DNA of 63,777 bases, the filler included, from Hausera hauseri (taxonomy: Eukaryota), in the NCBI GenBank assembly GCA_046269625.1. It is 11 parts of 11 records of this genome, joined end to end, with 100 filler letters (N's around TTAATTAATTAA, not from the genome) between each part and the next. Parts side by side here need not be neighbours in the genome. Positions count along the whole stretch, not along the records: positions 28,911 to 34,721 come from JBJURY010185305.1; 10 more parts are not named here. One strand, given 5' to 3'. The notes beneath the pieces were generated by a model, which saw only the letters and a list, made by a program, of their open reading frames with translations, had not been told where the DNA came from and did not search any database. Numbering within the stretch: the stretch's first letter is position 1; each line of letters starts with the position of its first letter. The translations under genes were made by a program, and so were the position numbers. Shown here one piece after another: positions 225 to 44,933 of this stretch.

Positions 225-697
225 ATGTCTGTCTTTTTTATTGACTTTGAGGGATTTGTGCATAATAATAATGAATACATCATAAAGGAGCTATGTATAG
301 TGCCAGTTGATAATATGTTTCAACCACTACATTATGTATTTGCCTAAGTGAATCTTAGTATAGTTCATGTGATTTATGCTATTTTTAGTCCTACATTACA
401 TTGTTGTACATACAAGCCTCAAGCAACAAATGCTTATTTGACACACCATCCTCACAAACGGACTTGGGAAGAATATAATACTCAGTTTTGTAAATATTGC
501 CTTATGCGAAATATCGTGAATATGTGTGATATAAAAGAATTCATGTTCTATGTCAAAGATCAAGAGAATGTGCATATGAATGTAGCAAATTGGTAGCAAT
601 ACCAAAGACCATCACATGTATTTATCGTAAATATGGTTCACATTGTGCTTATAAAAAGTGTTTAGCGTTATGTTAAAGTTATATTGTTACTAAATAA
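225..697 (+). pseudogene. Degenerate small DEDD-type exonuclease-like gene, convergent with pPolB
   Basis: Hand translation from ATG 225: MSVFFIDFEGFVHNNNEYIIKELCIV..HYVFA*, then in the same frame (ORF 348-596) QATNAYLTHHPHKRTWEE, then after a frameshift CIYRKYGSHCAYKKCL. The N-terminal hydrophobic-D-x-E motif is DEDD-like. Confidence 0.55.
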
Positions 698-848
698 ATG
701 TGTTATGAAATTAGTTGGTCTTAACTTGTATAGTAGTTACTTAATTTTACTTGGCCTTATCCTATATCTTGCATTACTTAATCAAGAAGACAACACGATA
801 TTTTTATACAACATTTATTACACAAAGAATAACAATGAATAACAATAT

Positions 849-18509: not shown

Positions 18510-18581
18510 CTGTCTTTGAATCTGAAATAATATAACCTTGAGTTAATTGTCCGTTAATACGGCTATTCTCTCGTAAATCCT

Positions 18582-21975: not shown

Positions 21976-22083
21976 NNNNNNNNNNNNNNNNNNNNNNNNN
22001 NNNNNNNNNNNNNNNNNNNTTAATTAATTAANNNNNNNNNNNNNNNNNNNNNNNNNNNNNNNNNNNNNNNNNNNNTTGAAATT

Positions 22084-25000
22084 TTGAAATCAAAAGTGAA
22101 AGAGTATGAAGATAGTTTAGTTAATAGTTTTAATCAATTAACACTTCAGGACAACGAAGAAGTCTTCGATGAATACATTAAAATTAAAAATTTACTTTTA
22201 AATTGGAATATTAAACTTGAGAATAAAATTCCAGTAGAGAAAGTTAATAACAATGTTGTAATTAGTAATGATAATTCCATAGCTGTAAAACTACCCAAAT
22301 TGGAATTACCACATTTTTATGGTAATAACGAAACTTGGATTTCCTTTAAGGAAATATTCAAATCTTCAATTCTTGATAATAAATCTTTAAGTGATGTTGA
22401 CAAACTAACTTATTTACACTCTTCAATTCGCGGCGATGCCGCCAAACTTATTCGAGGATTTGCAATCACACCGGAAAATCTAATTCATTGCTGGCAAATT
22501 CTTTGCTCTAGATATGAGAACAAGAGACAATTGGCAACATGCCAAATAAATAAAATATTTCGCATGAAGATTGTTAAAGCAAATAATTCGAAATTTTTAT
22601 TAGAAGTCATCGACATATGCAATGAAGCTATTCGAAATTTACAAACTTTAGGTTTGGAAGCGAATCATTTAACTGAATTGATTATTATTGATTTTCTTAT
22701 TTCGAAAATGGATGATACAGTAAATCAACGTTGGGAATTAACTCTTGACAATAATACTTTTCCTACACTAGATCAATTCAAATCATTTGTTGAAAAAGAA
22801 GCTAGAAGTATGAAGGAATATAAGTTTACTAAACCGGAAGTAAAGAAACTTCCGACCAAGCCTAATATAAATCATAACATAGACAAAAGGTTAAGCGTAA
22901 ACAATGCTATAGTGAAAAGTTCAAATGTAGATAAGGAAGTGCAACTTTATAATTGTATGTTATGTACACAATCACATGCATTATTTAAATGTCCTACATT
23001 CCATTCAATGAGTGTAAATGACAAATGGAAACTAGTGAAAGATAAAAATTTATGTGAAAATTGTTTACGTAATAACCATAATACTAACAATTGTAAAGTA
23101 GGATTCACTTGCAAGAATTGTGGGTCCAGACATCACACATCTTTACATATTTATGCTGTACAAAATCAAGTCCGTCCAACGGAATCGGTAAGTTCGGTAG
23201 CAAGTAGTTGCACAAATTCTCCAGATAATAACATTCTATTATCCACAGCCATAATTAAAGTCAAGGATCAGAATGGTAAATTACTTCCTTGTCGGGCTTT
23301 AGTTGATAGTGCCTCACAAAATTATTTAATTTCTCGGCAATGTGCCGAAAAACTTGAATTACCAATGCATAAAAGCACACACAAGCTGGTTGGGATTAAT
23401 GAAACCTCAGCTGAAACTTCTTTATTCACTACTACATTTCAATTCAGTCCGCATTTTGATACAAATTCATTTAATGTTAATGCATTGGTGGTTTCAAAGA
23501 TAACGACATCTCTCCCAAACTTTAAATTGAAAAAACAAAATTGGTCTCATTTAAATCAGTTAATTCTTGCAGACCCATCATACTTTGTTGAAAGTGACGT
23601 TGATATTCTTTTGGGAGCAGACATATTTGTATCCCTAATTACCGGTATTCCTATACTAGGACCTAAAGGCACTCCAGCCGCATTACCCACAAAATTAGGT
23701 CATTTGTTATCTGGGAGTGTGAATATAAATTTAAAACAAAATTCATCGGTTGTTTGCCATACCTTGGTAAATATTGACCATACTTTAAAAGGCTTTTGGG
23801 AACTAGAATCTGTGCCTACAACGATAAAATCTGAAGAAAAGGAAAATTCAAATGATGAAAATGAGCTGTGTGAATCCATCTTCCAAAAATATCATACTCG
23901 AAATTCAGAAGGAAGATATATTCTAAAACTTCCTTTTAAAGAAAATTCTATTCTTGGGGAGACAAGAGAAGGCGCGTTAAGAAGATTTTACTCTCTAGAG
24001 AGAAAATTACAAACAGATAATTCATTAAAGAAAAAATATATTGCATTCATGGAGGAATACGAAGAGCTTGGCCACATGGCCCCTCTGAACTCTGAGTTAA
24101 CATCATCCCATTACTTCTTACCGCATCATGGAGTTATAAACAATAATTCCACCACCACGAAGTTAAGGGTTGTTTACGATGGATCTTTTAAAAGTACAAA
24201 TGGTAAATCCTTAAATGATAATTTAATTACTGGAAAAAAGCTGCAAACTGACATCTTTCACATTCTTATTAAATTCCGTACTTTTCCAATTGCCTTCTCG
24301 GCAGACATCACCAAAATGTATCGACAGATTCTGATACACCCAGAAGATAGAAAATATCAACAAATATTGTGGCGTAAAGGTCCCCACGAAAATCTAAAGA
24401 CATACACATTAAACACGGTAACTTATGGCACTTCGTGTGCGCCTTTTTTAGCTATTCGCACTATTCATCAACTTTGCGAGGATGAGAGAGATAGATTTCC
24501 TCTAGCTTCAAAAATCGCTCAAGAGTCATTTTACGTAGACGATCTACTTAGTGGAGAAAACAACGTCAAATCTGCCCAAGCAGTTATCCAAGATCTTCAA
24601 AGCTTGATGTCGGCCGGTAATTTCGAACTGCGGAAGTGGGCATGCAGCCATCCTGAAGTGGTCGCCAACATTCCAGAAAACCTCAAGGCAAGTAAAACCT
24701 TTCATGCCTTTGATGATGATGATGATTCTTCTCAAAAAATCCTGGGACTATTTTGGGATTTAAATGAAGACTCGTTCCAAATACGCGCTGTTCCTTCCGA
24801 TAATATTTCTACTAAAAGGCAATTATTATCGATAATTGCACGAATCTTTGACCCTTTAGGATTCATATCACCATCAACTATCATTCTGAAAATTATACTC
24901 CAAGATCTGTGGAAGGCGAATTTGGATTGGGATGATCAAATCCCATCTGAAATTCATACTCGTTGGAATAAATTCCAATCTGAAATTGAGTATTTAAAAC

Positions 25001-27132
25001 ATATCAAAATTCCTCGATACATTCATATTCAAAGTGCCTCCACTTTTCAAATTCATGGATTCTGCGATGCCTCTCCAATGGCATATGCCGCCGTAATTTA
25101 TATTCGAACTCTTTCGGACACACCACGAGTATTTCTACTCACATCCAAAACTCGTGTTGCACCTGTGAAACAGGTAACGCTCCCTCGACTAGAGTTATGT
25201 GGTGCTGTTCTACTAGCTGAACTCATAGACATTCTGAAATCATCCTTAAACATCCAAACTCAAGATACCTATCTTTGGTGTGATTCCACAATCGCCTTAT
25301 GCTGGATTAATAATCCTCCACAAAAAGGTAATCAATTCGTACTTCATAGAGTGCGAAAAATTCTTTCTTCAACAAACAAAGAATCATGGCTACATGTCCC
25401 CGGAAAAAAAAATCCTGCTGACTGGGCTACTCGAGGTCTTTATCCAAAACAGTTACAAGAAAACGCGGAGTGGATCCATGGTCCACAGTGGTTGTATAAT
25501 TTCGATCCACTAATACTATCTGCAGCTCAATACCCTAGTGAAACTGATGAACTTCCTCCTACTAGTGAACCCAATTATTCAAAGGATTCTGTGTGTTTCA
25601 TCCAACAAGTTAATAAGGCACTTGACTTCATAAACGATTTTTCGTCCTACCTTAAATTAATTCGCACTGTGGCTTGGATATTTCGATTCACTAATAACCT
25701 AAAATCAACTACTAAAAATTCTGGACCCTTAAGCTCCTTCGAGATCAATCGCTCGATTCATACGATTTCCAAACTATTACAAGAAGGTGAATACAGCACA
25801 GAAATGCTTCTACTCAAAAACAGTAAACCTCTCCCCAAAGCAAGCAAACTCCTTTCTCTAAATCCATTCATTGATCCTAAAGGTATACTCCGTGTTGGAG
25901 GACGTCTCCGACATCAGCAAGACTTAAGCTTTGACGAAAAGCATCCCATACTCATTCCTAAAAACCATCATTTTACTAGACTTATAATTCAACACTTTCA
26001 CAAGATGAATTTCCATGCCGGTCAAGACCTTGTTTTATCTCTTATCCGGCAACTATTTTGGATTCCAGACGGAAAATCGACAATCAGAAAAGAGTTACGA
26101 AAATGTATTGATTGTTTCAAATTCCATACCCGACCTACTCCCCAACTGATGGGGGATTTACCATCATCAAGAATACATCCCTGTCGTGCCTACGAGCAAA
26201 TAGGAATCGATTTCACAGGTCCAATTACAACAAAATGCCAACATGTACGTAAGCCTACTCTATTCAAATCTTACATTTGTTTATTCATTTGCATGTGTAC
26301 CAAAGCCGTACACCTAGAACTTGTTTCATCACTCAGCACTTCATCATTCTTAGCTTCCTTGCGCCGATTCGTCTCCCGTCGTGGTTATCCTTCAGATATA
26401 TATTCTGATAACGGTACCAACTTCGTTGGTGCTGCTGCTTACCTCAAATCTCTCTTCAAACTACCACATGACTCCACTATCCAAGATTATTCATCTCAAC
26501 GAAACATCAAGTGGCACTTTATTCCACCCCATTCTCCCAATTTCGGGGGACTGTGGGAAGCGTCAATCAAGTTGACTAAAAGCCATTTACTAAAAACTTG
26601 CAAAGCTGCCATATTTAATTTTGAAGAATTAACAACATTATTAAGCCAAATTGAAGCGTGTATAAATTCAAGACCGTTGTGTCCGGTGTCTCCTGATCCC
26701 AAGGATCTCCGAGTTCTCACCCCTGGTCACTTTGTAATCGGTGGTCCATTAATTGAAGTTCCTGAAAACATATCTCATCATACTGCTTTAAGTTTTCATT
26801 CTAGGTGGACTCAAATTCTGCAATCGAAGGAGAAATTCTGGAAACGATTTAAGGTTTCCTATCTTCATCATCTGCAATCTCGAGCCAAGTGGAGGAATGC
26901 CAGGAAACCACTTGAAGTCGGTACCCTTGTTTTGATTCCCGACGCCTCCCCACACAATCATGGATCTATACTTGGACGAGTGGTTGAAACTTATCCTGGT
27001 GATGATGGACTCGTTCGCGTCGCAAGCATCCACACCTCTAAAGGAACATTTAAACGATCCATATCTCAGCTTGCCGTCCTTCCCGACCAAGATCACGCAG
27101 CATCTTCGGCCGCCCCGGAGGATGTTGGATAA
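22084..27132 (+). CDS. BEL/Pao LTR retrotransposon gag-pol polyprotein (5' end cut by contig start, otherwise uninterrupted, 1682 aa)
   Basis: KLPKLELPHFYG gag motif, three zinc knuckles (CMLC, CENC, CKNC..HH), protease ALVDSAS, RT YFLPHH..KLRVVYD..YVDD, RNase H GFCDAS..LPRLELCGA, integrase IDFTGP/SDNGTNF/GGLWE, C-terminal GDDGLVR. Confidence 0.96.
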   Translation: MKSKVKEYEDSLVNSFNQLTLQDNEEVFDEYIKIKNLLLNWNIKLENKIPVEKVNNNVVISNDNSIAVKLPKLELPHFYGNNETWISFKEIFKSSILDNKSLSDVDKLTYLHSSIRGDAAKLIRGFAITPENLIHCWQILCSRYENKRQLATCQINKIFRMKIVKANNSKFLLEVIDICNEAIRNLQTLGLEANHLTELIIIDFLISKMDDTVNQRWELTLDNNTFPTLDQFKSFVEKEARSMKEYKFTKPEVKKLPTKPNINHNIDKRLSVNNAIVKSSNVDKEVQLYNCMLCTQSHALFKCPTFHSMSVNDKWKLVKDKNLCENCLRNNHNTNNCKVGFTCKNCGSRHHTSLHIYAVQNQVRPTESVSSVASSCTNSPDNNILLSTAIIKVKDQNGKLLPCRALVDSASQNYLISRQCAEKLELPMHKSTHKLVGINETSAETSLFTTTFQFSPHFDTNSFNVNALVVSKITTSLPNFKLKKQNWSHLNQLILADPSYFVESDVDILLGADIFVSLITGIPILGPKGTPAALPTKLGHLLSGSVNINLKQNSSVVCHTLVNIDHTLKGFWELESVPTTIKSEEKENSNDENELCESIFQKYHTRNSEGRYILKLPFKENSILGETREGALRRFYSLERKLQTDNSLKKKYIAFMEEYEELGHMAPLNSELTSSHYFLPHHGVINNNSTTTKLRVVYDGSFKSTNGKSLNDNLITGKKLQTDIFHILIKFRTFPIAFSADITKMYRQILIHPEDRKYQQILWRKGPHENLKTYTLNTVTYGTSCAPFLAIRTIHQLCEDERDRFPLASKIAQESFYVDDLLSGENNVKSAQAVIQDLQSLMSAGNFELRKWACSHPEVVANIPENLKASKTFHAFDDDDDSSQKILGLFWDLNEDSFQIRAVPSDNISTKRQLLSIIARIFDPLGFISPSTIILKIILQDLWKANLDWDDQIPSEIHTRWNKFQSEIEYLKHIKIPRYIHIQSASTFQIHGFCDASPMAYAAVIYIRTLSDTPRVFLLTSKTRVAPVKQVTLPRLELCGAVLLAELIDILKSSLNIQTQDTYLWCDSTIALCWINNPPQKGNQFVLHRVRKILSSTNKESWLHVPGKKNPADWATRGLYPKQLQENAEWIHGPQWLYNFDPLILSAAQYPSETDELPPTSEPNYSKDSVCFIQQVNKALDFINDFSSYLKLIRTVAWIFRFTNNLKSTTKNSGPLSSFEINRSIHTISKLLQEGEYSTEMLLLKNSKPLPKASKLLSLNPFIDPKGILRVGGRLRHQQDLSFDEKHPILIPKNHHFTRLIIQHFHKMNFHAGQDLVLSLIRQLFWIPDGKSTIRKELRKCIDCFKFHTRPTPQLMGDLPSSRIHPCRAYEQIGIDFTGPITTKCQHVRKPTLFKSYICLFICMCTKAVHLELVSSLSTSSFLASLRRFVSRRGYPSDIYSDNGTNFVGAAAYLKSLFKLPHDSTIQDYSSQRNIKWHFIPPHSPNFGGLWEASIKLTKSHLLKTCKAAIFNFEELTTLLSQIEACINSRPLCPVSPDPKDLRVLTPGHFVIGGPLIEVPENISHHTALSFHSRWTQILQSKEKFWKRFKVSYLHHLQSRAKWRNARKPLEVGTLVLIPDASPHNHGSILGRVVETYPGDDGLVRVASIHTSKGTFKRSISQLAVLPDQDHAASSAAPEDVG

Positions 27133-27482: not shown

Positions 27483-30224
27483 AAATTCATCTAAATTTAG
27501 ATACATTTTATGTGTTTTGTTTTGTTTATATTGTAACTTAGATCATTTAAAAATCATTCCAATATAATCTAATTTTAAATTTACTTTTTTATGTTCTCTA
27601 ATATATGTGTAGGTGGCATAAATATGCATTACAACACTAAATTGCAGCTGCTAATTCTTGAGCTGAATAAAAGAATTTTTGATCATAACTATTACAACGA
27701 ACATAAATATCTTTGTTCTGCATATGATTTCCTTATGGAATACTTATAATTTACTCATTGTGTGCACTTCATTAATGATTTTAGAACTCGAAATGCATTT
27801 AAATCTAGTAAAACTAGTAAATTCATTTTGGCCACCCCACCCCAAAGTATTAATTAGAAAAAAAAAAAATGTTTAAATATACATTCACATAGAATTTTCA
27901 CAATTTACCTAAGAATACTTAATACAATAAATTATATCAGATATCCTCAGGTAGAATTGCGAATTTGTTTCCTTTTTCTACTGGTCTTCACAAATTATTT
28001 CAGTTATATATTTATTAAAAATATCATTCTATAATGCATTCATAATTTTTAAAATGAATGCCGTAATGTTTTTTTTTTTTTTTTTCAAGTAAAACAGTTG
28101 TATTTCTCTAATTTACTTATGGTCTAAATTATTATTAATAGTCAGATAAGATTTTAATTTTCTCTCACAAAATTGCTACCTCTGTGGAAATAAAAATTAT
28201 AATTCTTATATCGTATTTTAAAATGACAAGTTATTTTGAAAAAAAATTATTTAAAATATTTTGATAGTTTTTATAAATGACTGATATCCCAAAAGGTTTT
28301 ACGTTAAGGAGGAGGATAATGATAATAAAAATATATACTTGATGATCTATAATATATATTATTATATGTAAAACACTACATCTCGAGAAATGTAGACTAT
28401 AAACAAATTTTCCTATTTGAAGCATTTAATTATTAAATTATATTGTTTAAAATATACAAATTAAGAACCAGATTCTATAAGTAAACAAAACATGCTGAAT
28501 TTTAAAGAATAATCGATAAATGACTATACATAGAGGATATTTACAGAAAAAATTTTCTTGAAATTTAAATTGGGAGGAAATTGCCAAATTCACTCGAATT
28601 GGTTTAAATGAATTCCAATAGCCATTAACGAAATGCACACAATAGTTATAATGTACTTCATTTCAATTATATGTAAAATCAATCATATTTAGAACAACGG
28701 CATTTACAATCGTAGTAAACAGTAATGATTATTCTTTTTTTTTTACTTACTTCAAGATTTAGCAACTGCATTCGATGTAATGTATATCCCTTTTATCCCG
28801 GGAATGAGACNNNNNNNNNNNNNNNNNNNNNNNNNNNNNNNNNNNNNNNNNNNNTTAATTAATTAANNNNNNNNNNNNNNNNNNNNNNNNNNNNNNNNNN
28901 NNNNNNNNNNCAAAAATTCCTGATTTAAATTGGAAAAAAAAAAAAAAACGTGTGTTTAGAAAGACATGGACGTAGCCAGAACAACTGTGGCAGCTATGTC
29001 GAAAACATTTGCTGTTGTTTTTGTAAACAGATTACTTTATTGCGCAGTAACAGGTAATGCTCTGTTTTAACGGGACCGATTAAATGCTGTAGTGTGTTTT
29101 CCCCACTTCTGTTTCCTTGGTATGATGTTATCCGTGATTGACTTTTTCTGTATTATTTGGTAGGCTAGGATTTCAAATTATAAGATGCTGTTTTCGAAAA
29201 TAAAAATTATTGAATTGTAACTTTATAATTTTTTCCATTCTTCATTATTAGTATAGTCTTTTTGGAATATTTCCTTGAAACAATAATATTTTCGTTTCTT
29301 TGGAGGGGGTTGATGTTCAAACTCGATATTTTCCGACTTTTTGATTGGCTTGGGTATGATACCCGTTTTTCTATGTGAGAGGAACAATCGTGATGTACTT
29401 TTCATTTTTGGTATTTTTTCACTATTCGTATTAAATTAGAATAATTGTCGCCTGGTTTTACTCGTTGGTTGCATTGTTCTTCAGATTATTGTCCATCAAA
29501 TGAAGAGTTCGACGATATTTTTCTGGTTACATCATACAATATTTCATCTGGCATTTTTTGTCTTCTATTATATATCCTCAAATATTTAGTATGGCGGAAG
29601 CTATATATTGAAGTGTGTTGCCTTCATGCTCCAAAACGATCTTATTATAATTGATATCTTTGCTTTCCTTTTGAAAGGTTCTGCTATCTCTTGGTCGTCG
29701 TCCAACATGCAAAATAACAGTCTGTAACGCAGAGCATTTAGACTACCGGACAATCCTCCAACGTATACTTGTTCCAATCGACTAATTCCTTTGTTGTCCT
29801 TTTTGGGTTAATGAGGTGTCTCTGTCTATACGTAGATAGTCATTTTATAGTATCCGAGCTTCCTCCTTTTCCATTTCCTCTATTTCTTCTTCTCCTAGTT
29901 TGTACTTTATTGCCATTAACGTACATGTTAACCAGCAATTGATTGCGAATGAATTGTTTACTTTATTGTTCATTAGTCACGCATCAATCCGCCTTTTTTC
30001 CGATCCGAATTAAAAGTATAGACGCAGTGTATCAATTCTGATACAGAGTGTGTGCGGTGGTCTTGATCTGATATTAGTTGTGTTTTGCTGATTTCCTTTA
30101 GGGTCTCTGCTAATTCTCGATAATCTGAGTATTCATCTGTTGATTGTTTAATGTAGGAAGATTCTGGTGGGGTTTCCGTATTAGTTGAGAGAAATTAGTT
30201 CGATACGCAATCTATATTGTTAGT

Positions 30225-32330
30225 TTATCTTTTACTGAGATGTTCATTCCAGCTGAATGCTGGAATACGTATTACCTTCCAGGATCCATCCGCCTCATCG
30301 CCATCACTAGAAAGTTTGCCTAACATAAATAACGAAAATACCCATAATAATATTAAGATCCATGTGGGGTTTGGATGTTGCGATGTGGTCTCAGCTGCAT
30401 CTTGTATATTAATCGTAGATAGGAAGCATATCCCCATGAAGAATAACGTTCCTAATGAGAACGAAGAATAACTTTTTATTCCAGTGAATTCTCGTTTTTT
30501 ATCCTTCTCTTGAAGGTTTTAAATATGCATGGCTCTTGTTTTGTTTGCAATTGCATCTAAATATTTAATACTGTTGCCTGCAAACTGTAGTTGATCAATC
30601 TTCATCCACTGTTCTGGAGGGAGGTTGCTGTCTAGGGGTTGTTCCATTCTTCTGTTCCAAGCTCGTTTCACTTCTACTTCATTAATGAATTCTCGGCCTC
30701 CTATATTTAGATTGTGGTGTTTATAAATTTTCAACGCTGGGCTAGCGGCTACATAGTCGTGATGCTCGGATCTTCCTGGGTTGGCTAAATCACGAATTGT
30801 ATAATATACTTCTATACAACTTATCTTTATCAGGAGTTTGTTTAATGGGGACAATGCGTCGGAATCCAGTTTCAGATCTTCGCAAATTATTTTTATTATG
30901 GGCTTATATTGTTCATCTGTTATTCCGCATTTGTCGTGATATTTACCGAGAAAATCACTTAATTCCGCTACACTACTTGTGGGTTCCTTGACTAGTTGTT
31001 GTGCATGATTAATACGTTTTGGAGTGGCTAGTAGGAAATTCTCCAATCGATGTCGATTTGTAGCCTCTCTCGTTAAAGGGAGTGGTGATAGACTTTTCCC
31101 TTTCTGTTGGGATAGTTCAGCATAATTTTGTTCCAATGGTTTGGTTTCTTTACGTTGTGCTTGTTTAGTGCGATCTGATCTCACTGATTTAGATTTAACA
31201 TTTATTGGAAGTTTCTTGGTTTCGTCAGGCTATACCTTTTAATTTCCTCTTTTAGGAGTCTAATATTCTCTTCTGCTTCTTGTAATTTCTTATTTATGGT
31301 GGTATAGCTTGTAAGTATCTGAAATTATCTTGTTGATTGGACTCTTGTTAAGTCGAGATACATAGAAGTTGTTGATAAAAGTCTTGATAAATCCCGTAGA
31401 GAGTTTCGTGGTGATTTCTTCGGAGTATTTGTTATGCTAGATACTGAATACCTGTCTGCGTTAACTACTGAAGATAGGGGTACTAGACTTCGTGTATGAT
31501 CATTCGAGAAAAGGTTATCTCTTCCTTCTTTGTCGCTTGTTATACTACTTTGAAACATATAATATATAGATATAAACAACATTACAATTGCACTACTTCA
31601 TGAGTTAGTTGTGGTAGTTGTCGAGATTGGTTGGGCGTTCGCGCATCCGAATATTATGAGTAATATTAAGGTTGTCAAGGTTATGGTAGATAAATTAAAA
31701 GGATTTTCAAAAATTATTCCAGGAGTATTAGTTGAGGGTGCTTCTGTTATTCGAGTTTGCATTATCTTCGAGTTACTGTAGATTCGGTATTTTGTTCGGT
31801 CGTTTGCTTTAAGGTAACATAATTTATTGAGGGTGGAATAGTTTCTTCCCCTGGCGCGAACCACCGTTGATCATTAGGTTGATGTTTTGTATCTTGGTAT
31901 CCATCTCAATTGAATACAATTGATCTCCAAATGACTTTGAGTTCTGCTCCTGTTAACTTGTATAGTATATCTAAACAATAATAAGATCAGAATACGACTC
32001 TTGTGGGTTGGCATAGTAAGTAACATCTATATATCCTTAGTTAAGTCTAATTTTCCACACGCTGCGGGTATATAATGGGTGATTCGTCTATATAATCGTA
32101 AGTTTACGTGGGTCAGCGGGTTGGTAGGGTCAAGTTCCGCGTTAACATACTTACCGTATACTCTAGCCAATATCGGTGTCAAAAGAGGATAATCATTACA
32201 ACTTTGGCGATAGTACATATTATATAATAGTTCTAACCTTTTTATTTCGTTTTCTAATTCATTTATGTTTTTTCGTATTTCTCCAGATCTTTCGTTTTTT
32301 CTAATGAATTCGTAGCTACACCTATCACTA
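30225..32330 (-). other. Degenerate accessory coding region 3' of gypsy pol (TM, coiled-coil and unknown ORFs)
   Basis: Same-strand ORF fragments with signal/TM-like segments (LTTLILLIIFGCANA; WILILLWVFSLFML) and a 221-aa ORF at 30519-31184; no family recognised. Confidence 0.45.
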
Positions 32331-32757
32331 TGTCATAATCTATGAGTGTATCCCGATCTATAATACAGGGAATTGTAGTATTTTTAGTATGTAATACAAG
32401 ATCATTGAACGTTTACCTTTCAATTTAGGTAAGGCTGTTACTACGCCTATTACTCTCAGCTGGTTTCCGTTTACTAACTTATGATTTATTTCACTGCTTT
32501 CGATCAATTTCAATTTTAGAGTCTACATCATAGCCTTGCTTAAGTAGTTTTTATGCTCCTGTATCTACTATTGCTTCTATTTTGACTTTGTTTATGGTTA
32601 TGGTTGTGGTTACTGTATTGTTCGATCTATAGTCAATGAATGCAACCACTGCGTTCTTATCATCTAGCTGCATTCTGCTTCGTAATGGGTATTTGCAAGG
32701 TGGTGCCTGTTTTAATTTACGCTCTTTAGCTACTGGTCTGCATCGCTGTACGCTCAT
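32330..32757 (-). pseudogene. Retroviral-type aspartic protease located downstream of integrase
   Basis: ITINKVKIEAIVDTGA (catalytic motif), LVNGNQLRVIG (flap-like) and PCIIDRDTL (IIGRD-like) on the minus strand. Confidence 0.7.
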
Positions 32758-32759
32758 TT

Positions 32760-34721
32760 AAGAAATTTTATTACGGGTGGATAAATTTTGTCGTTCAAGA
32801 CTTGATTCGGTTATTTGCAGTATTTTGTATGGTCCTTTATAAGGTCATTTCAATTTTGGGCTTTCACCTGGTTTACAGGTTTCATCCAGTATGTTGACTA
32901 AGTCTCCAACTCGATATACATGGGGTTTTGCCTTATTGTATTGATCTTTGTAATTTTTTGTGGTATTTGATTTTTAGCCAACTCTGATACGTGTCTCGTG
33001 CAATCTTTCGTGCAGAATTGTTGCATAATTGGGTTCTTCCATCAGTTGTGATTGTGGCGGTCTATATTCCGTATCGATTGGCATAATATCTCGTCTACCA
33101 TACAATAGAAAGAATGGTGACTTTCCAGTTGTTGTATGAGGACTTTGTCAATAGGCATATACCCAAAGTTTTATATACAGATCCCAATCGGCTGGGTGAT
33201 CATATGCGTAGCTAGATATCACAATTCAAAATTGTTTATTAAAGGCTTCAACTGCGCCATTGGCTTAAAGATGATAATGTGAGGTAAATTTATGGTTAAC
33301 TCCTAATATTGTTAGTACTTTTCCATGAGTTCGCTGCAAAAATTGCTTCCTCTATCGGATATCATTGGCATTGGCACTCCATATTCAAATATTACATCAT
33401 CGACTAATCTTCTTGCCATAACATCCGTAGTTTGATTTATCTTTGGCATCGCTATTGGAAATTTTGAGTGGTAGTCTATTATTGTAAGTACACATGTATT
33501 TCCTCTGGCAGTAGTTGGTAACGTTCCTACTACGTCTACGTCTATGAAAAGGAATGGTGATGCCAGAACTGGTACTGGTTTTAATGGTGCTTTCTTCCTT
33601 GAAAATTTCCTCGTTTTTCTGAACATATTTGACAATTTGTACACAAATATTTAACGTCTTCAGCTATTTTCGGCCAGTAATATTTTTGCGTGAGTCTGAC
33701 TAGGTTGGCTTTATAACCTCGGTGTCCGCCTAGTTGTCCGTCATGGTAGTGTAATAAAAGCTTTGCACGCATGTGTTTTGGTGCAACCATGAGTAAGTCT
33801 TCGCTCTCTTGATAGTAGATATTTCCCCTATTTATTCTATATTTATTTTTGCTCCTCCTTTTTTAGACTATTACGAATTTTACGAATCTCTTCGTCTTTT
33901 GCTTGTCCTTTGGCTATGGCTTCGTGCGTAATTGGTATGGTCAGAATCCTGTACATCACTTCGTTGACTTCTGCATTATCTACTTCGTCTATTATGGTCT
34001 GAATTAGTTCAATAATTTTGTAATATTCGTATAGGATGTCCTCAACAAACGGGTCTTTATAGTCACTTTGCTTTGCATTTCCCTGGTTATCTTTATTCAG
34101 TGATGAATAATCATACTTATCAGGTGGTTTGTATCCGTGGTACGTTTTCTTCGTGTTGCTTTGGGTACATCTGGGTGGATTTTTTGTGAATAATATTTTT
34201 TTAAGTCATGCATGTCATCGTAATCGGGATTAATGCAATCATTATAATTTTGGACAATGTCATTCTCTTGAAGTCTTGATAGAAAATCTGCATTAGAATG
34301 TGCCTTTCCTTGTCGGCATTTTATTGAGATTTCTAGGTCCTGGATTTCCGCAGCCAATTTTATTAATTTTTGGCTGATATCTCGTTGTTTCATTAACCAC
34401 TGTAATGGTTTTTGATCCGTGTACGGGATTATTTCTCGACCGGTTATGTAATATCTAAAATATCGTAATGCATATACTATAGCATAGCATTCACGCTCGA
34501 TTGTTGACCATCTGCGTTGTGTTTCACTCAGTGTTTTGCTGAGGCATGCTATTATTCATTCGCGCAATCTATAGTGAACGCATTGTCCCAAGACTACTCC
34601 TGTAGTGTAACCGCTGACGTATGTAATTATTACATATGGATATTTAGGATCGGAAAATTGCAATATCGGTGATGAGGTTAGGACTTGTTTTAGAACCTCG
34701 AATGCTCGTTTGTGTGGTTCT
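32760..34721 (-). mobile_element. pol: Ty3/gypsy pol remnant (RNase H-integrase)
   Basis: WSTIERECYAIVYALRYF, TDQKPL, HSNADFLSR, HDGQLGGH..CTNCQIC, ISDRGSNF, SPFFLLYGR, KGPYKI. Confidence 0.92.
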
Positions 34722-34821: not shown

Positions 34822-37000
34822 ACATTAATGACATTCTCATCGCATCCAAGTCATGGTGTGCGCATTTATCTAAATTAAGCGAAGTATTCGATAGAATTGA
34901 ACTTGTAAAACTAAATTTAAATCCGAAAAAATGCGAATGGTGCATGAAAGAAGTTAGATATCTTGGATTTGTCGTTTTCAACCAAGGAATTTTGACTATT
35001 GCTGATTTAATATCCTAAATATTGGAATATCCCCCACCAACAAATGTCCACGAAATGAAAGCTTGGTTAGATTTGGGAGGATTTTATGCAACATTTATAC
35101 CTGCCTTTCCAGAAATTAACCAGCTTCAATATAAACTCTTAAGAAAGGATCACAAATGCAAATTGACAGAAGAGAACCAAAATGTATTTGACGAGATTAA
35201 GAAACAAATGGTATCAACACCTATATTGAGATACCCAGATTTTCCGTTACCATTCATTTTGAAAACCGATGGTAGCATAAAAGCTATTAGTTATATATTA
35301 GCCCAGAAAAATCCAGAAGAAGCAACCGAGCACGTAATCGCCTACGGAGGACGTAGTTTAAATAATTCAGAACGAAAATACTCAACCACTGAATTAGATT
35401 TACTAGCTATTCGTGATGAATTGCGACATTACGAGTATTACGTTTACGGTCATAAAATCATAATATTTACTGACCATAAGGCACTCTTATCTTTACGCTC
35501 CGACAATAGACATGTATCAAGTCAACTCCAAAGATAGAAGTTAAAACTTTTGAATTATGATCTTGAAGATCGATATCGTCCTGGCAAAGAAAACAGAGAC
35601 GCCGACGAGCTTTCAAGAATGCCATACAATAAGATAGTAGCTGCAGTTTCTAAGCCATTATATAATGAGAATGACAAACAAGTGAACAAGAAAATCAGTA
35701 ACGATATGTTGCAATAACAACGCCAAATTCAAGTACGAAATATCGAGACCTTACAAAACCAAGATTCTTTTATTGTTTGAATCAAACAACTAATCAACGG
35801 ACAATTACTTGACTCAATATCCAGTCACATTCAAAAATTTTATGAAAAGAACCGAAAAAATCTTGAAACCGAAAATGGAATTTTACGACTAAGAGTCGGA
35901 GAAAGAAAACTGATCCTTGTATTCACACCGGTCATCAAGGCTATCATACTACAAGAACACAATTCACAATTAGCTGGACATCCATCTTTAAACAAGACTT
36001 CGAAGCATATAACCGCAAAATATTACTGGCCTCAAATGAATGAGCATATTGAATGATGGGTACGTTCCTGTAAAATTTGTTCTGCAAGAAAAGATAGAGG
36101 ATTTCTTGCAAAACCGTTTTAGGAAGCTTACCTGATGCCCGGGAGCCAATGGAAGTGTGCTCTATGGATATCTCCGGACCCTTTCAAGCTTCAGACTCAG
36201 GGTAAAAGTATATACTGTCACTTGTTGACTACTTTTCTCGCTACGTTGTATTGCTGCCATTAAAAACACGACGAGTTGCACAGTTGCTGAAGCCTTTTTC
36301 TACGAAAGTATTGCTGTACTGGGCACCACAAAACAATTATTAACTGATCGTGCACCATACTTCATTAGCGAATTTTTCAAAAAATTGTCAAAAATATTCC
36401 AGTGCAAACATTTGTTAACGACATCATACCATCCACAATGTAACGGTATGGTCGAAAGAATGAATCGTACCATCCAGGGTATCCTTTCTACAAAGATAGC
36501 AAATGATCAAAAGGATTGGCATAACCATTTGAAAACTGCGGTCTTTGCAATTAATTCTAAGCCTACAAAAAGTACCAATCATTCACCTTTTGAACTAATG
36601 TTCGAGCAATTACCTTTACTACCATTAGATACGGAATTACTATCATCATCCTTGTTAACCAGTGATCACATGGATGACCAATACCAGATTTTGCTAAAAC
36701 GACTCGAACACATTAAACGCGAAGCAAAACAGTTTGAAGAAAAATACAAAGCCGGATGTAAAAAGCAGTTTAACAAGAAGGCACGACACCATACTTATAA
36801 GATTGGAGATTACATAATGGATCACTAACATATGGTGAAGAAAGGTAAATCGTTAAAATTAACACGTGCAGGTCAAGGGCCGTACAAAATTGTTGATGTG
36901 CGCCAGCAAACACTTTTTATTCAGAAAGGACCTGATAAGTACAAGGCTGTGTCTATTCAACGAGTAACTCGAGCACCTACATCATATAACGACGTCATAC
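34822..37000 (+). mobile_element. pol: Ty3/gypsy pol remnant (RT end-RNase H-integrase)
   Basis: VRYLG, FILKTDGS..YSTTELDLLAI, TDHKAL, H..GH..CKIC, TTSYHPQCNGMVER, SPFELMF, GPYKI. Confidence 0.92.
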
Positions 37001-39460
37001 GCGAAGCAGAGCTAGAATCACCCAAAACAGAAGAGCCTAAAGTAACAGCAATGTGCATAACTCACTCGATGAATATCTCAGAACATCATCCTATTCACTC
37101 CATTCAGAGCCGATACTTGGCTATCTTTTTCCTCATTTTTCTAGCATTCATAATACCTATAACGGCTACAAAAACCAATACAACAGCTATACCACTTACT
37201 GATTTGACTGAACGCACTACTATTATCAATATTGACACAAATAAACACAGTATTTGCCTTCGAACTCACGTGTCGGTAATAATGCACCATAAAGTTGATT
37301 TTATCTTTACATCACAGTATAATGTCTCCTTTGTTTGCACAATTCTTGAAACACGTACTAAAACCTGCTGCTGCGTTAATTACGATACGACGTATACGTA
37401 CTATGTAACACTGAAGGTAAATAATACCGACACCATTCTTTGGGAGCCAAATATGATTCTTCATGTTCCACTTATCAGGAGATAAACATATTAGAAACTT
37501 CTGATGTATTTTCGTGCAATCCTTTTATTGCTCACTTCCTAAAACATGGCATTAAAATTTCTAGTATCGATCTCACAAGACAACCACTTTGCATGAATTT
37601 ACACACACACAGTTATTACCCATTGAATTCGAAGTCAGTATATGGTTAAACCCAATCTCTACATCCATAAAACAACCAACATATTGTTATCTTAAGCGAA
37701 ATGATACTCGTTTACGCTTCACACTCTATTTATACGTCTGGTACAGAATCCGTTTAGAGGCATACCATACGCTTGAAAATAGACAATCTATTAGAGTGCA
37801 TTCTCACCGCATTCCTATTTTATTTTCAGTTAAACCAAACATACCCATTCCAGCCCTTGCCAAGCAGCGAATTACTTCTCCGCGATCTGCGAAACAGATG
37901 ATAATATCGAAATTAGGGACTACACCCACCTATAAGGGTAGGAAAGATTGAGATCGAGATAAATCACAAGTTCAGCACCTATATACGTTGAAACCAAAAT
38001 TACATAAACACGTACTTCATGGGAAATGGATGAAAGAATTCCCTATCAAATTCAAATTAACGTCCTACACAGACCATATTGAGATAATATTGTAAAACAC
38101 AATTAACGAACGGAACCTCATGATAACTTGCACGGGCTCACATGATAAAGTTAGCATCATGTATGAAACACAAGCGAAATTTTTGTGAAAAACTAACGCC
38201 AGACACCAATTATTTGGTGAGGATAGAGACCTCGGATAACTCTAAAATAGTAGCCATAAAACACAACCAGCAGTAGGTCAACATCGCCACATAAGATATA
38301 ATGATGACGATGAAAAATGGAAATTAACTACAGCTTCGACCAGGACTATTGAAACATATCTTACAGTATTGGTGGATATTCATATTGATAACAGGTGTTG
38401 GCATCGTTCTTATGATGCTTGTTGCACTAGGTAGAAAATCGAAATGTGGGAAGAGATTACTTAGGGACTCTCACTATTCTATTATCCGAGGAGGTCATCA
38501 GATCTTACAAATAAATGAGACTGAGGAACAAAACGAAATAGGAAAACAAACAATTACAGACCCAATATTAATTAATGAAGTAAATAGAAATGAAGCATCA
38601 CACAACATTGTGTCTTGCTTCTATCTTAATTCTAGAACTAGTCAAGTGGGAACTAATTGATAAGGACTTTCTTAGCTTCGTTAACGAGAACACAAAGAGT
38701 TACATACTAACAACGAGCATAATATTTGGACTAATCATATTATCTTATATAATTTATAAGTTGGCAGCCAATGAGGATCAGACAATTCGAAATGTTAGAA
38801 AATTGATTGGCTGGCCAATCGGATTAGAATCAACAAAGTATAAATGCAAGATTCAATCTCAGCAGTACGGAAAAAGAAATATGTGGAAAAACTTATACCA
38901 TCACGCTCCAGAATTCGGAAGCCACCAACCAAAAAATTTAACCCCGAGATTGGGAGTAAAGATACTTTCAAATTACCATACGGTATTCCGACAAATCAGG
39001 AGAAAGTAGAACCGAAAACTATAAAAAGGCTCAGTACAACTGAAGAAAACATGACATATTTATTTCGTGACAAAGTGATAGCCAATCTAAATTGTTCAAT
39101 GAACAGTATAGAAGATGTCACCAAAATACCAAATGTATTGAAATACGGAGAACAAAGAAATCGAGAAATCCTTCCGTTCAAAATATTCAACTCAGATACT
39201 ACGTTTAAATTTTCCCAATGGTCAAAAGGCAACATCGGAATAAAGATACATGTCGCTATCGGGAAAATCATGGCGATATTTAGAGGAGAAAAAGGACGAA
39301 GAAGCAGTTTGAAAACAATCATGGGAGAGGAATCTTGCCAAATAAACTATTCTGTCGAGCCAAAAAACACGATTTATTGCCAGAGATAATAAACATCGGA
39401 ATAGTAGAAGTTTTAGAAAAGAAATACAACTTTCATCCTTATTACCATTGAAATATACGA
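37000..39460 (+). other. Degenerate env-like membrane-protein region in frame with the integrase C-terminus, plus further TM ORFs
   Basis: ORF 36832-37485 runs from GPYKI into a signal-like segment (YLAIFFLIFLAFIIPITA), then Cys residues and N-x-S/T sequons; TM helix YWWIFILITGVGIVLMMLVAL at 38349-38660. Confidence 0.55.
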
Positions 39461-40960: not shown

Positions 40961-41164
40961 ACATTTCGTATATTGTATTTTACCCATACACATACAAACA
41001 CACGCTATAAAAAGTGTTTAGCGTTATGTTAAATTTATGTTGTTGCGAAATAAATGTGTTATGAAATTAGTTGGCCTTATCCTATATTCCACATTACTTG
41101 ATCTAAAAGACAACACGACATTTTTTATAAGTTTTATTAATACAAAAATACAATGCTAAGATAT

Positions 41165-44100
41165 TTACATTAATGCAACATACCCGTAAGGTAGTGTGCT
41201 TATTCCATCACCCAGGATCTGCCTTTTGTCATACATCTAATTTAGGCTCTTTTTCTCTAATGTTACTGTCCCAATGTTATGAGCCTAAACTGGATCCTTC
41301 GCATCGCTGATATGATATGAATCTGCTTATGCAGAACTCTCACATAGTCATTGAAGCCAATCTTCTTGACTAAGGTCGCCCTTTGAACCCCTTTAGCCCG
41401 CTTCTTTACTTGACAACATATATCAATGGCATAAATTTTTGACCTAACAGCTATAAATCTCAAGATGATTGCCCCATTCACCTCGTCTTTGAATTTCCCA
41501 AAAACCTTCTTGTTGATAATTAAATAGTTTCGCTAAACCTTCGGATAATCCGAGGTATCCATGTGCTGAGCCAATTTCGCAAAGTCCTCATAAATGTCCT
41601 CTGTATGGATCTGATAGATGAAACTATCGGTATCCATGTACATCAGCTGTATGGACTTGAATGTAAGGACCATGATGTCACAGTGGAATTTGTACATCAA
41701 GGTATTTGACAGGTCCAGTATTGCCATACCCACATATTTGGGCTTGTTGAATTGCAAGGATGTTTTCAGCGTATGAATGATGACCAAGTTTTCAGCATAT
41801 ACGATGCTGCTGTGGAAGTTTGGCTTGGCAATGAGCTTCTTTGCCCGCTTCCACTCAGATACCAGTTCGATATTTATCCTGTTGCAGATATTCTCCATGC
41901 TCTTGCCAAAACGCTGTTGTTGCACAGATTGAACTGGTCCTTCTCAAAGTCATTCTTGACATTTGTCCGAAGCTTGGCATTGAGGTCTATATATGGCTTC
42001 AGCCAGTTAGACTGACTGAACTGCAGGGCCCGATGGATTTTAGTAATGCGGAATCCATTCCTGATCGCCTGCTGGAGATTTATATAGTGAACTACATACC
42101 TCTCCCTACTATCTAGATGGCAGAGCAGCTTTCTATGCTTGCTTCAGGGAGGAAAGCAGCTGTTGATGCCTTGTATGGATAGAAGCCGGATATTCCATAT
42201 CCACCTCCAGTGTGTATCCCGTATCTCCAGTGGGATCCAGATCCAGTATAGGCATGTTTTCAGGATACTTGACCCACTTAAAGTTATCATGTGCAATGGG
42301 GCGCTCATTGCCTATCCATATAGGTTGTTAGCATCCAGGTATGATATATATGAGGATTCCTTGAATGGATCGTAATTGGCCATATACTTGTTGTTGGCCT
42401 CACTATACCGTTGGATGGCCTGGCATATTCCACCTCTAATGCCTCTCTCGACCATGAGGATCATGTCGTAATCCTTAATGTCTGCAGCTGGACACCTGTA
42501 TAGCGCAGCATTGCTGCCCAACTCATCCCTGGAACCGTAAAGAATTAAGCCGGATCCAATGCATGGCTCTATCGTAACATCAATGAAACTCTCAAAGACA
42601 TCCGCAAGAAGCAGTACGTCCGTCTTGAAGTATGTCGCTGTATTCTCCTAATGTTCCACATTGGAATGCATGCCATACGTTCTGAGCATGCTGGTAGTCC
42701 ATATCACTGATATCGCAATCAGAAAGGATATTGTAAAAACCCTTCTTGGCCGGCAATGATGTCTCATCCAGTGTGTCCCATGATGTTATATAGTCATAGG
42801 GAAACACGCCTTTCCTTTTTACTAGGTCGAATGCAGTGGGAAAGAACCGCTTCGTCTCCTTGAGTTCTTCTGAAGGGAGGTTCTTCACTAAACTGTCAAA
42901 TGAAGACGACATGCAAAGGAAACTGTTTATGAAGCGAAGCCTGATTTTGCCGACATGCTTGGTAAAGGTGATCTATTTTTTCCTCACTGTTGGGGATCAC
43001 CTCAATGTTTCCTTCAATGCTGCCCAGTTCCCGAACAATGAAATGGGAATCATAGCCACTGAGATTATGGAATACTACAGGCACATATATACATGTTTTA
43101 CAACGTAGATTGCAGTTGTTGCAGACTGCACCTCTATATGTGCCTGTAAAATGGCAATGATCCATGACTTCATAATTCTTCTTAGTGAATGATTTGGAGC
43201 ACTATTCTTCTTCTTGTTGCTTCGATATGCTCATTATATTCTTATGCTGCTGCATCATATCTCCAAGCATATGAACCGTATCTTCAAGTCGTTTCATAAA
43301 ATGAGGTGCTGCGCCTCGATCCCTGAATAACAATGGTTCACTGTCCAGTCCTTTGGCATATATGCAATATAATGAGTGCTCATGATATTGGTATGTCGTT
43401 GTGCTGCTATGTTGGGGATTAGGGCTGCAGCTCTGAAATGGACGCAGGATAGCCTCAAAGTCGAAATAGAAAACTATTGGAACCTTGATCTTCTTCTCAA
43501 ACTCCTTGAATTCAATGTAGTCCTCCTTGGGAAATTCTGACCTGATACAATAATTGTTGTTGCAGTACATTTTGTGCTCTGCAAGCTTTAAATCAGCTAA
43601 CTTGCCACTGAAATGGGACAAACATCTTTAGCATATTTCGATTCTTTCCTTATGTTTCGTAATTTGGGATCTGACTAGACGTTCAAAGTTCTTTATCCGG
43701 ATGAAATGCCTCTTTTCACCATCAACTAGTAGGAGCAAATCACTATGGTCTTTCAATTCAGCATCATATATCTGCAGCGGATAGAATTTGTCCTCCTCAT
43801 CCAATCCCAAGATATTGATGGAAATGTTGATTCGACTGAACTTCTTGACTTCATCTATGGATGGCGGGAACTTAATACATTGGAAGTCATAGTTGTGCTG
43901 GATGTTACGGTATACTGTAAACCATTACGAGTTTTGATAGAATGGTATGCATGAAACACATATTGTCGCTATTATGGACATTGATGCACGCGTTTTTCTG
44001 CTGAATCCATTCAGGCAACTGAATATATGAACTGCCCAACATGGGAGAGTACTTGTACACTTGTACTTGTGCACATACACAAGCAGTCTCTGTATGGCTG

Positions 44101-44933
44101 ACAGAGTCCAGTCGCTCTTCTTATCCTGGATCTCCTCAGCCTCGAGAATTAGCTTCCTGTGTTCATCATGCAGCCATTCTACTATATTGGTTGTTTACAA
44201 TATGGACCTATTTCGGGTCTTAAAGGCCCTTTTGGATTCTTCGCCATCAACATTGATGTACGTGGCCTCCAGTTTCATATTGACCTTAAGGGCCTTGAAC
44301 TCTGCCATGTTTTCCTGAAGAATTCCTTGTTTCTTCCTCTGTGCATAATAGGAACTCTTTGAGGGTTGTTTGTCCAGTTGCATCAATAACATCTGCGGCA
44401 TTTTCTCTTTAATGCTGCAGCATCAACTGACCGCTGTCTGACTTTTTGTTGGAGCTGCTGTGTCTGATGTGGCTGCGCCTGATGCGGCTGCGCCTTTCAG
44501 TTCTCTAATATGCTTCACAGCTACTGCATCAGATCCAGAAGCATAATGCAAAGCAGAATATTGCGAAGCATCATACTGCGAAGCAGATGCATCAAAATTA
44601 TGTTGCTCATTAAAGATGGCCTTCTTTGACTTTGACGTAAAGTTTGTCAAATAAGCAATATGATCTTCATAAAACTGCATGNNNNNNNNNNGTATTCTCC
44701 ATCAAATATAACCTCACATCCTGAGCAAATAAAATACAGGACCCCGTTATATTTGTATCCATAATAGTTCATCATGGTATTACGACAGTTCTGAGGGTTG
44801 TGTATTGCACATGTGCAATTCACGTATGAACTACATCCTTGATTTTGCTTAGGCACGAAAGTCACCATTGGCATATTCGTATTGAATATCTGTTTTTTCG
44901 ACTTGGTGAAGTAAATCAGGTGATGCTTAGGGG
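41165..44933 (-). pseudogene. polB: pPolB copy C, close relative of copy A, nearly full length
   Basis: DHCHFTGTYRGAVCNNCNL (HNH/endonuclease VII-like), YFDFE, FHNLSGYDSHFI, RKGVFPYDY, YLDANNLYG, FGKSMEN, YMDTDSF, RSKIYA, KRAKGV. Confidence 0.95.

Follow-up and report, generated by a model that had tools for sequence, protein, structure and literature searches.

The locus described here raises the question of why an aspartic protease should lie behind the integrase (IN) of a gypsy pol, and whether it is an additional enzyme or the element's only protease moved from its usual place. Retroviruses and LTR retrotransposons are usually described with one protease, and their domain order is used for classification. 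The window, that is the whole stretch of 63,777 nucleotides of Hausera hauseri DNA that was analysed, consists of 11 contigs joined by N-linkers. The copy under study lies on the minus strand of the part from JBJURY010185305.1 (28911–34721), and all features given below are on that strand.

The copy is entered within its RNase H (RH) domain (34292–34720; Pfam RT_RNaseH E 2e-25; profile 122 bits, one stop). The contig edge, a linker, falls just upstream and inside this domain, so that the 5′ half of the element is out of view. RH is followed by the integrase H2C2 zinc-binding domain (33611–33862; Pfam Integrase_H2C2 E 8e-17) and by the integrase core and C-terminal domain (32674–33593; Pfam rve E 2e-7). 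The latter carries the YPLRSR end motif at 32691–32674 and was aligned with the relatives L001, L002 and L006. The integrase profile, at 351 bits over 33790–32716, has to pass 6 stops and change frame twice. An RH that precedes an IN with an H2C2 finger and GPY motif is characteristic of Ty3/gypsy elements (Metaviridae), the PR-RT part of the PR-RT-RH-IN order being seen in relatives only. The Copia or Gmr1 order (PR-INT-RT-RH) is ruled out, as RH precedes IN and no RT follows it. Troyka, described in part of PMC12440569 as having a gypsy-like domain order in animals without GPF/Y and env, is ruled out by the presence of GPY. Pliego virus was considered and then dropped.

From the integrase core (33270) to DTGA, by way of GPY (32835–32827), the sequence stays in one frame, with stops and no frameshifts, much as the first-pass annotation had read it across the decay. 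Its observation of a protease after GPY is confirmed: a whole but decayed retropepsin occupies 32619–32344. This domain contains the DTG triad at 32565–32557, a flap-like stretch in a different frame at 32477–32445, and, in the first frame again, an IIDRD motif at 32364–32350 in which the conserved glycine is substituted. A frameshift-aware scan with a profile built from 21 natural proteases of related elements gives 52.9 bits over profile positions 1–93 of 104, the best protease match anywhere in the window. None of 600 shuffles reached this score (maximum 21.8). The Pfam matches are weak and below cut-off (RVP E 0.055; gag-asp_proteas E 0.035). The triad follows a beta strand and is of the D[TS]G type found in retropepsins (clan AA, A2-like), and the profile covers both the flap and the C-terminal hydrophobic-hydrophobic-Gly-x-Asp motif of a full-length domain, the fold itself being confirmed on the relative L002.

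To be read through, the protease needs a change of frame at about 32553, another at about 32383 and passage of a stop at 32523, which makes 3 lesions in 276 nucleotides, compared with 8 in 1075 nucleotides for the integrase. Because of the substituted glycine and the two frame changes it is a pseudogene. Directly ahead of it lies a VVAFI motif (32635–32649), a candidate cleavage site between IN and protease; similar motifs stand at this position in P0154, P0155, L006 and other relatives. The distance from GPY to the catalytic Asp is 90 residues, within the 79–108 seen in 14 relatives. The stretch is very probably a true retropepsin domain that continues the frame of the IN in a dead giant gypsy copy. 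This copy is a fossil, and its interest lies in the family behind it. Some read data count against the fusion: in sequencing run X1, which may be the source sample and whose depths do not rank genes, two single contigs skip 32594–32798 and 32642–32713, and no piece bridging GPY and DTG was seen among the listed 8 of 11,352 pieces; no RNA datasets holding the window sequence were listed.

Downstream of the protease the window copy continues with a 101-codon open stretch (32027–32332), a putative cargo with a coiled-coil-like start. It has no Pfam match, and its Atlas rows from 0.9 are nameless or weak. A signal-peptide-like hydrophobic stretch was found by hydropathy scan at 31631–31693, and relatives likewise have a hydrophobic stretch downstream of integrase or protease. 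Where relatives have an ectodomain the window has a 236-codon open stretch (30519–31229), which gave no Atlas, viral-contig or FN3-profile match and, for the read-through region, a sub-threshold Pfam row only. A transmembrane-like stretch (30318–30365, by hydropathy scan, in the open frame 30225–30518) lies close to 30225, where the polyprotein probably ends. The first-pass annotation had noted that no gag precedes the protease and no RT follows it. In 32340–28912 the profiles for gag, dUTPase-like region and RT scored 15.8, 14.8 and 15.6 bits, no better than their null means of 16–17, and so gave no signal. Profiles for FN3, ankyrin, exonuclease and ubiquitin-like domains found nothing in the tail, and an env score of 25.1 bits, against a maximum of 24.3 in 20 shuffles, was taken as chance. 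A second dead protease suspected by motif at 32173–32093 was rejected (12.5 bits, null mean 12.5).

The same in-frame IN–protease fusion is found in 14 distinct intact relatives with mutual integrase identities of 53–96%, so the INT-PR order does occur elsewhere. Since these relatives carry the fusion with the spacing and junction motif of the window copy, the protease is not a nested element, as the first-pass annotation had argued. It had also called the domain a second or relocated protease. A canonical pre-RT protease (DTG) is present in all nine fusion relatives that extend far enough 5′, so that the protease is extra; ‘second’ is supported and ‘relocated’ is unlikely. Pfam names the domains of the relatives aspartic proteases above cut-off (e.g. 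P0003, RVP E 7e-7), and four of the seven best phmmer matches among 1.84 billion representatives align through the integrase into DTG. In the 201 proteins screened, IN is followed by 150 or more residues in 64 cases and by a protease no more than 200 residues away in 14; 13 of the 14 belong to the Burro-like clade described below, and the other is a tandem gene model in which RT follows the protease. Across 80 loci direct fusion occurs in 3, and gag precedes the later protease in 6 others.

The sister copies are divided, the domain being shared by the 14 relatives and missing from 10 of 24 clade rows, close relatives included. Most rows without it pass from IN to a hydrophobic, signal-like stretch. 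A single protease is all that is found in P0027, P0162 and P0163, and a second clade member inside the same 11-contig window has no post-IN protease. With the decayed window region as query, a word-based protein search confirmed none of 724 candidates and a search of metagenome contigs none of 250 stretches. Viral-contig scans likewise confirmed none, and the genome-contig scan gave one short locus, in a bacterial MAG record.

The intact relatives are giant single-ORF gypsy elements encoding one polyprotein of about 2,700–4,100 residues (longest 4,057). This begins with gag, often with a putative ubiquitin-like domain (in P0153, matches to ubiquitin at E 4e-5 and to PF11976 at E 0.0015 fall slightly short of the cut-off), and continues with a class III fusion env and its TM, which separate gag from pol without a break in the frame (Monjiviricetes_fusion, E 1e-84 to 1e-98). 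One to three proteases then precede a conserved, putatively dUTPase-like region before RT (its PDB match to dUTPase has E 0.56, and an unrelated chain ranks above it with E 0.049). After RT, RH and IN come an optional protease with cargo, a signal peptide, an ectodomain predicted to fold like FN3 pairs (E 4e-8) and a TM. Exonuclease-like ORFs lie behind the giant ORF, and the accessory domains include ankyrin, RING and RNase_T-type domains. Up to three extra proteases occur per element, after env or after IN, for a total of up to four retropepsins, and they mostly adjoin a membrane-crossing stretch or module border. No LTR-like repeat pairs were found in L001–L006; L002 has two short tandem pairs only.

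This arrangement recalls Burro/GYPSM1, the planarian giant gypsies described in section 7 of PMC6431247. As described there, Burro shares with the relatives one giant ORF with an N-terminal gag and CCHC knuckles, and an in-frame env that is interposed between gag and pol and is kin to fusion proteins of the mononegavirus type. Some members have ankyrin repeats, and accessory ORFs occur separately (PMC6431247). The relatives also have putative counterparts of the ubiquitin/SUMO-like domain of Burro and of its dUTPase-like region, which lies after the protease and before RT. However, section 7 names one protease, compared with as many as four retropepsins in the relatives, the post-integrase position included; the Burro ORF is longer (about 4,900–5,100 residues); and the C-terminal signal peptide-FN3-TM and subsequent exonuclease-like ORFs of the relatives differ from the description (PMC6431247). 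The Burro domains BIR, BCL2 and MATH were found in none of P0152, P0153, P0154, P0158 and P0160. For this reason, and because of their shorter ORF, the relatives are not filed as Burro proper, Burro having been compared by description. A quick RH+IN tree joins the window copy to the clade (SH-aLRT 94; P0002, P0152 and P0165 left out). A second quick tree, with 14 further rows left out, places it inside a 96-supported set in which env is present in all 17 rows reaching that far. The window row forms a long branch, with at most 41% identity to the clade. With the RH+IN tree as its one tie, the window element appears to belong with the Burro-like gag-env-pol giants.

In protease trees a branch separates extra from canonical proteases with support of 83/77 to 85/91, and of 94 in another tree, which suggests that the extra proteases lean toward one paralog group. 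Monophyly of the post-IN proteases is rejected (p-AU 0.027), and the post-IN protease of P0007 clusters with two post-env proteases, from P0008 and P0156 (100/99). The post-IN protease probably derives from a paralog lineage copied between post-env and post-IN positions. The affinity of the window protease itself is mixed. It scores 44–53 bits on pre-RT profiles, compared with 38 on post-IN and 40 on upstream-extra profiles; the topology test does not decide between the extra and canonical groups (p-AU 0.53); and in a quick tree it falls, with three extras, among the canonical proteases. Three long pre-RT rows were dropped from this tree and from the p-AU tree, the latter also lacking four triad-less rows.

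The placement of Pol in the relatives suggests what the extra enzymes may do. Pol is flanked by the env TM on one side and, on the other, by the signal peptide that starts the C-terminal surface protein, and would thus form a cytosolic loop with both ends tied to the ER membrane. The extra proteases, located at these tie points and dimerising there, would cleave at the post-IN junction motif and around the cargo, releasing Pol and the accessory domains before the canonical protease is activated in the particle. Such release would refine processing without being indispensable. We infer that freeing Pol from its flanking membrane anchors has about an even chance of being their role, and processing of the downstream accessory proteins, as first proposed for this locus, is plausible. 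Taken whole, the anatomy together with the release mechanism is the best explanation and one we moderately favour. A more speculative and less probable extension is that these elements are enveloped agents of invertebrates that resemble retroviruses, are little described and may still be transmitted, and whose polyprotein processing is split between a particle-activated canonical protease and a movable paralog release module at the membrane tie points, which ferries ankyrin, zinc-finger or FN3 cargo between post-env and post-integrase sites.

The extra protease could instead be cargo itself, a cytosolic effector that cuts host proteins (immune, apoptosis or translation factors) beside the ankyrin, RING and exonuclease accessories. 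In L006, P0008, P0154 and P0158 only about 40–90 residues separate protease and signal peptide, so there is little else there to release. Between L001 and L002 the protease diverges faster than RT and IN (57% versus 88% identity), its gain and loss across the clade are patchy, the relatives do bear ankyrin, RING and RNase_T-type domains, and Burro1 is reported, in part of PMC13465017 citing Lee et al. 2026, to have an anti-apoptotic domain. However, the membrane-side or module-border position of most extra proteases and the junction motif conserved ahead of them speak against this, and no host substrate is known; we consider the effector role unlikely though worth weighing. That the extra proteases are functionless duplicates carried by template switching would suit the many relatives without one and the copies that have lost the triad (EVG, DKS, DTA). 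This is largely refuted by purifying selection, and we give it hardly any weight: dN/dS is 0.28 for the one pair compared (L001 and L002), and 13/13 post-IN proteases checked retain both D[TS]G and the Gly motif at the C-terminal end, across lineages with just 53–65% integrase identity. The triad is also kept in the full-length cluster members examined (15/15, 15/15, 5/5 and 4/4).

Two further readings concern the window domain. A canonical protease, either the element's own or part of another gypsy, could have been copied to this site later and independently, and the domain would then be convergent with the relatives. Its better scores on pre-RT profiles, the pre-RT proteases that are its nearest rows by path, a tail unlike those of the relatives and the other clade member in the window without the domain all agree with this. 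The shared GPY-to-Asp spacing and junction motif, the lack of gag, dUTPase-like and RT signal beside it, a lesion density resembling that of the integrase and one tree linking it to the extras (support 94) make this improbable. The off-contig 5′ half and the same pre-RT affinity would also allow it to be the element's sole protease, moved behind the integrase, yet the pre-RT protease of all nine informative fusion relatives leaves this very improbable.

Compared with the Ty3/gypsy pol in general, the RH-IN order, H2C2 finger, core and GPY are shared, as are the retropepsin DTG, flap and C-terminal motif. Unlike it, a further protease follows IN, at the position of the chromodomain in chromoviruses, and the ORF runs on into membrane proteins. 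Extra or leader proteases are known from RNA viruses, namely the alphavirus capsid protease before a signal sequence, coronavirus PLP1/PLP2 and closterovirus L1/L2. They are alike by analogy in that extra enzymes stand at module borders of a long polyprotein, but they are serine or papain-like and monomer-capable, whereas retropepsins must dimerise. Anakin is a BEL/Pao element and not a gypsy, and we know of no post-IN protease in it. Like the relatives it is an LTR retrotransposon bearing a mononegavirus-related fusion glycoprotein, chuvirus-derived in this case (Anakin is named in PMC12440569; see also PMC7642597). No description of an extra post-IN protease was found in the literature searched, which lay outside the primary Burro papers.

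An extra retropepsin under selection behind the integrase, in polyproteins that can hold as many as four, breaks the one-protease rule. The elements offer a natural system for retropepsin specialisation and activation outside the capsid, and for the processing of a multiply membrane-crossing gag-env-pol-receptor polyprotein. They also suggest that a wider, still intact clade has the gag-env-pol layout of which planarian Burro was reported as the first case. The L002 domain model resembles the retropepsin domain of Ddi1 (rmsd 2.4–3.0 Å). The modelled L002 tandem differs from tethered HIV protease (rmsd about 15 Å); it does not adopt the tethered-dimer arrangement and so gives no support for an intramolecular dimer. 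Tandem pairs of an active and an altered protease (L001, L002 and P0160) may be regulated pseudo-dimers.

The window consists of 11 contigs linked by runs of N. In contig 28911-34721, on its minus strand, the gypsy element is visible from RNase H (Pfam RT_RNaseH, E 2e-25) onward; the contig starts inside this domain, and the element's 5' half is missing from it. The integrase zinc finger (E 8e-17) follows downstream of RNase H on the same strand, and then the integrase core (rve, E 2e-7). From the core (33270) to IEAIVDTGA, with the DTG at 32565-32557, the sequence stays in a single frame that contains stops and no frameshift and takes in the GPY motif (32835-32827) and the end motif YPLRSR. 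The flap lies in a different frame and IIDRD in the first frame again. As Pfam matches the protease at E 0.035-0.19 only, 21 natural proteases encoded by related elements were combined into a profile for a frameshift-aware aligner. This aligns 32619-32344 to profile positions 1-93 of 104 at 52.9 bits, reading through one stop and changing frame twice; all 600 shuffles stayed at or below 21.8 bits, and the runner-up protease peaks of the window reach 24-33 bits. The retropepsin that the first-pass annotation placed behind the integrase is thus confirmed. This copy is a pseudogene, with 3 lesions in 276 nt of protease; the integrase has 8 in 1075 nt. The search downstream of the protease gave no gag, dUTPase-like or RT signal. 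The tail of about 700 codons contains signal-like and TM-like stretches, a plan that matches the tails of relatives, with which no sequence similarity is detectable.

Searching 1.84 billion representative proteins with phmmer gave 8,366 matches. Four of the seven best (P0002, P0003, P0007 and P0008) align through the integrase into the DTG, and Pfam labels their post-integrase domains aspartic proteases. With an alignment of the seven best as query, 80 loci were kept from metagenome contigs, six of them close, and two further searches added 41 and 15 proteins. Among 201 proteins, 64 extend at least 150 residues past the integrase and 14 contain a protease within 200 residues, 13 of these 14 being members of the clade of giant single-ORF gypsy relatives with an in-frame env. 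The fourteenth, P0133, was rejected as a case: in this tandem gene model the protease is followed by RT. The 80 loci include three direct integrase-protease fusions (L001, L002 and L006); at six others gag precedes the later protease. Once duplicates are merged (P0002 = L002, P0161 = L006), 14 distinct elements contain the fusion, their integrases 53-96% identical. The distance from GPY to the catalytic-motif Asp is 79-108 residues in the relatives and 90 in the window copy, and a hydrophobic junction motif precedes the protease (VVAFI in the window copy, TVAFI in P0154). A canonical protease before RT is also present in all nine fusion elements with enough 5' sequence. Together, the 14 fusions with their matching spacing and junction motif and the retained upstream protease identify the domain as extra, neither relocated nor a nested fragment. 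Of the earlier proposal of a second or relocated protease the first half is supported and the second has become unlikely; its argument against simple nesting, from the lack of gag before and RT after the domain, is borne out by the relatives.

One public sequencing run, X1, which may be the source sample, contains 44% of sampled words from the stretch; 11,302 of its contigs map here, mostly less than 95% alike, and cover 30 of 30 bins, the protease included. Near 32553, where the window copy changes frame, other X1 contigs read differently (rows of six and five contigs), and 85 contigs differ at the stop beside GPY, which suggests that these lesions are not common to the whole family. At least two single contigs lack portions of the integrase-protease junction, and none of the pieces listed (8 of 11,352) bridges GPY and DTG.

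Full-length clade members have one polyprotein ORF of 2,700-4,057 residues. It opens with gag bearing CCHC knuckles, behind which a ubiquitin-like domain is often present; next come a class III fusion protein (Monjiviricetes_fusion, E 1e-84 to 1e-98) and one to three proteases. A conserved, only weakly dUTPase-like region (E 0.56) leads into RT, RH and IN, after which some members have a protease with cargo; signal peptide, ectodomain and TM complete the ORF. In predicted structures the L005 ectodomain (pLDDT 60) resembles FN3 pairs (E 4e-8) and the L002 post-integrase domain has a fold like the Ddi1 retropepsin domain. The RH+IN tree places the window copy on a long branch next to 23 other clade rows (SH-aLRT 94), within a 96-supported set in which env is found in 17 of 17 rows reaching that far.

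Beyond the polyprotein, separate ORFs occur at L001 6861-9920, L002 7268-10371, L003 2684-6445, L004 10617-12104, L005 12085-13470 and L006 5011-6525. They include an exonuclease-like family (one matches Pfam RNase_T at E 6e-9, and two more that were tested match nothing in Pfam) and a RING protein in L003. The cluster of P0158 has 20 members and that of P0159 has 21; in both, the 15 members listed are intact, near-identical polyproteins of 3,744-4,029 residues, mostly on 15-18 kb contigs, consistent with transmission or with activity in the very recent past. P0027 and L081, clade members or relatives, come from bacterial MAG records, probably mis-binned eukaryotic DNA.

The layout resembles that described for planarian Burro, whose giant ORF has gag and pol with env in frame between them, together with a SUMO-like domain, a dUTPase-like region and ankyrins; the section describing it names one protease (PMC6431247). 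The relatives are shorter, and the five long proteins scanned lack BIR, BCL2 and MATH, so they are not filed as Burro proper. Troyka is ruled out, since it is described as lacking GPF/Y (PMC12440569) and the window copy has GPY. The excerpts of PMC8532177 and PMC13465017 hold nothing on Burro proteases, and full-text literature, judged mostly by title and the start of the abstract, yielded no description of a second or post-integrase protease, though an earlier one may exist. With high confidence the post-integrase retropepsin is a real feature conserved across this clade, best described as Burro-like gypsy giants that carry additional, movable retropepsins.

In a 54-row protease tree, 22 of 23 pre-RT proteases fall on one side (85/91) and the 30 extras group together on the other (83/77); the window row and one long pre-RT row lie in between. 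In a quick tree built on a different set of rows, three extras fell among the canonical proteases. Post-integrase proteases as one clade are rejected (p-AU 0.027), and that of P0007 clusters with two post-env proteases, from P0008 and P0156 (100/99). An extra protease is followed by ankyrin upstream of pol in P0153, and downstream of pol in L001, L002 and P0160. At L004 3617-5836, between env and pol, a cassette of protease, signal peptide, FN3 and TM mirrors the post-integrase cassette of other members. This pattern points to copying of cassettes between the post-env and post-integrase sites. The post-integrase protease is patchy (14 of 24 rows, window included; at least three changes forced). 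D[TS]G is kept in 13 of 13 post-integrase domains of the tree, and the triad throughout the cluster members examined; L001 against L002 gives dN/dS 0.28 (dN 0.286, dS 1.009). At L002 3753-4430, L001 3340-4020 and P0160 1055-1290 an active-looking protease leads straight into a second retropepsin-fold domain, and this into ankyrin repeats. The second domain has an altered triad (EVG or DKS) and is still constrained (dN/dS about 0.26, L001 against L002).

While position, fold, conservation and selection are demonstrated, the release mechanism that we infer has even odds. With the env TM upstream and the signal peptide downstream, Pol would form a cytosolic loop anchored in the membrane at its two ends, where the extra proteases would sit. 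Retropepsins must dimerise; membrane tethering could let the extra proteases act ahead of particle assembly, freeing integrase and cargo by cutting at the junction motif. Such a step would probably not be a necessity, because in many relatives the integrase leads directly into a signal-like stretch, and some possess a single protease. The main rival is that the domain works as an effector on proteins of the host. The boldest reading, an unlikely one, takes the elements for an enveloped, transmitted group whose proteases have specialised.

The window domain may instead be an independent copy arisen in its own lineage, as it scores 44-53 bits against pre-RT profiles and 38-40 against extra profiles. 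Removing long and triad-less rows from the tree joins it to the extras with support 94, but its placement with the canonical side is not rejected (p-AU 0.53).

A second decayed clade member (34822-39460, plus strand) has RT-RH-IN-GPY and no post-integrase protease. Its signal-like stretch lies near 37110 and its TM-like stretch near 38380. The FN3 profile matches at 38045-38291 (43 bits, null maximum 27.5), and 38994-39450 matches accessory ORFs of the relatives (38 bits, null maximum 28). Another gypsy element (16857-20018, minus strand) has an integrase tail and a 561-codon ORF, without a Pfam match, that by eye resembles an F-type envelope, with a signal peptide and a basic cleavage site. 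The long open gag-pol ORF at 22076-27132 (plus strand, about 1,680 codons) is one we take from its motifs to be BEL/Pao-like. At 650-4070 and 41006-44680, on different contigs, lie two copies, about 80% alike, of one element whose ORF resembles a family B polymerase; by eye it is Polinton-like. An unbroken 984-codon ORF at 55735-58689 (minus strand) encodes the proteasome subunit RPN2 (RPN2_N, E 2e-85), a eukaryotic host gene without introns.
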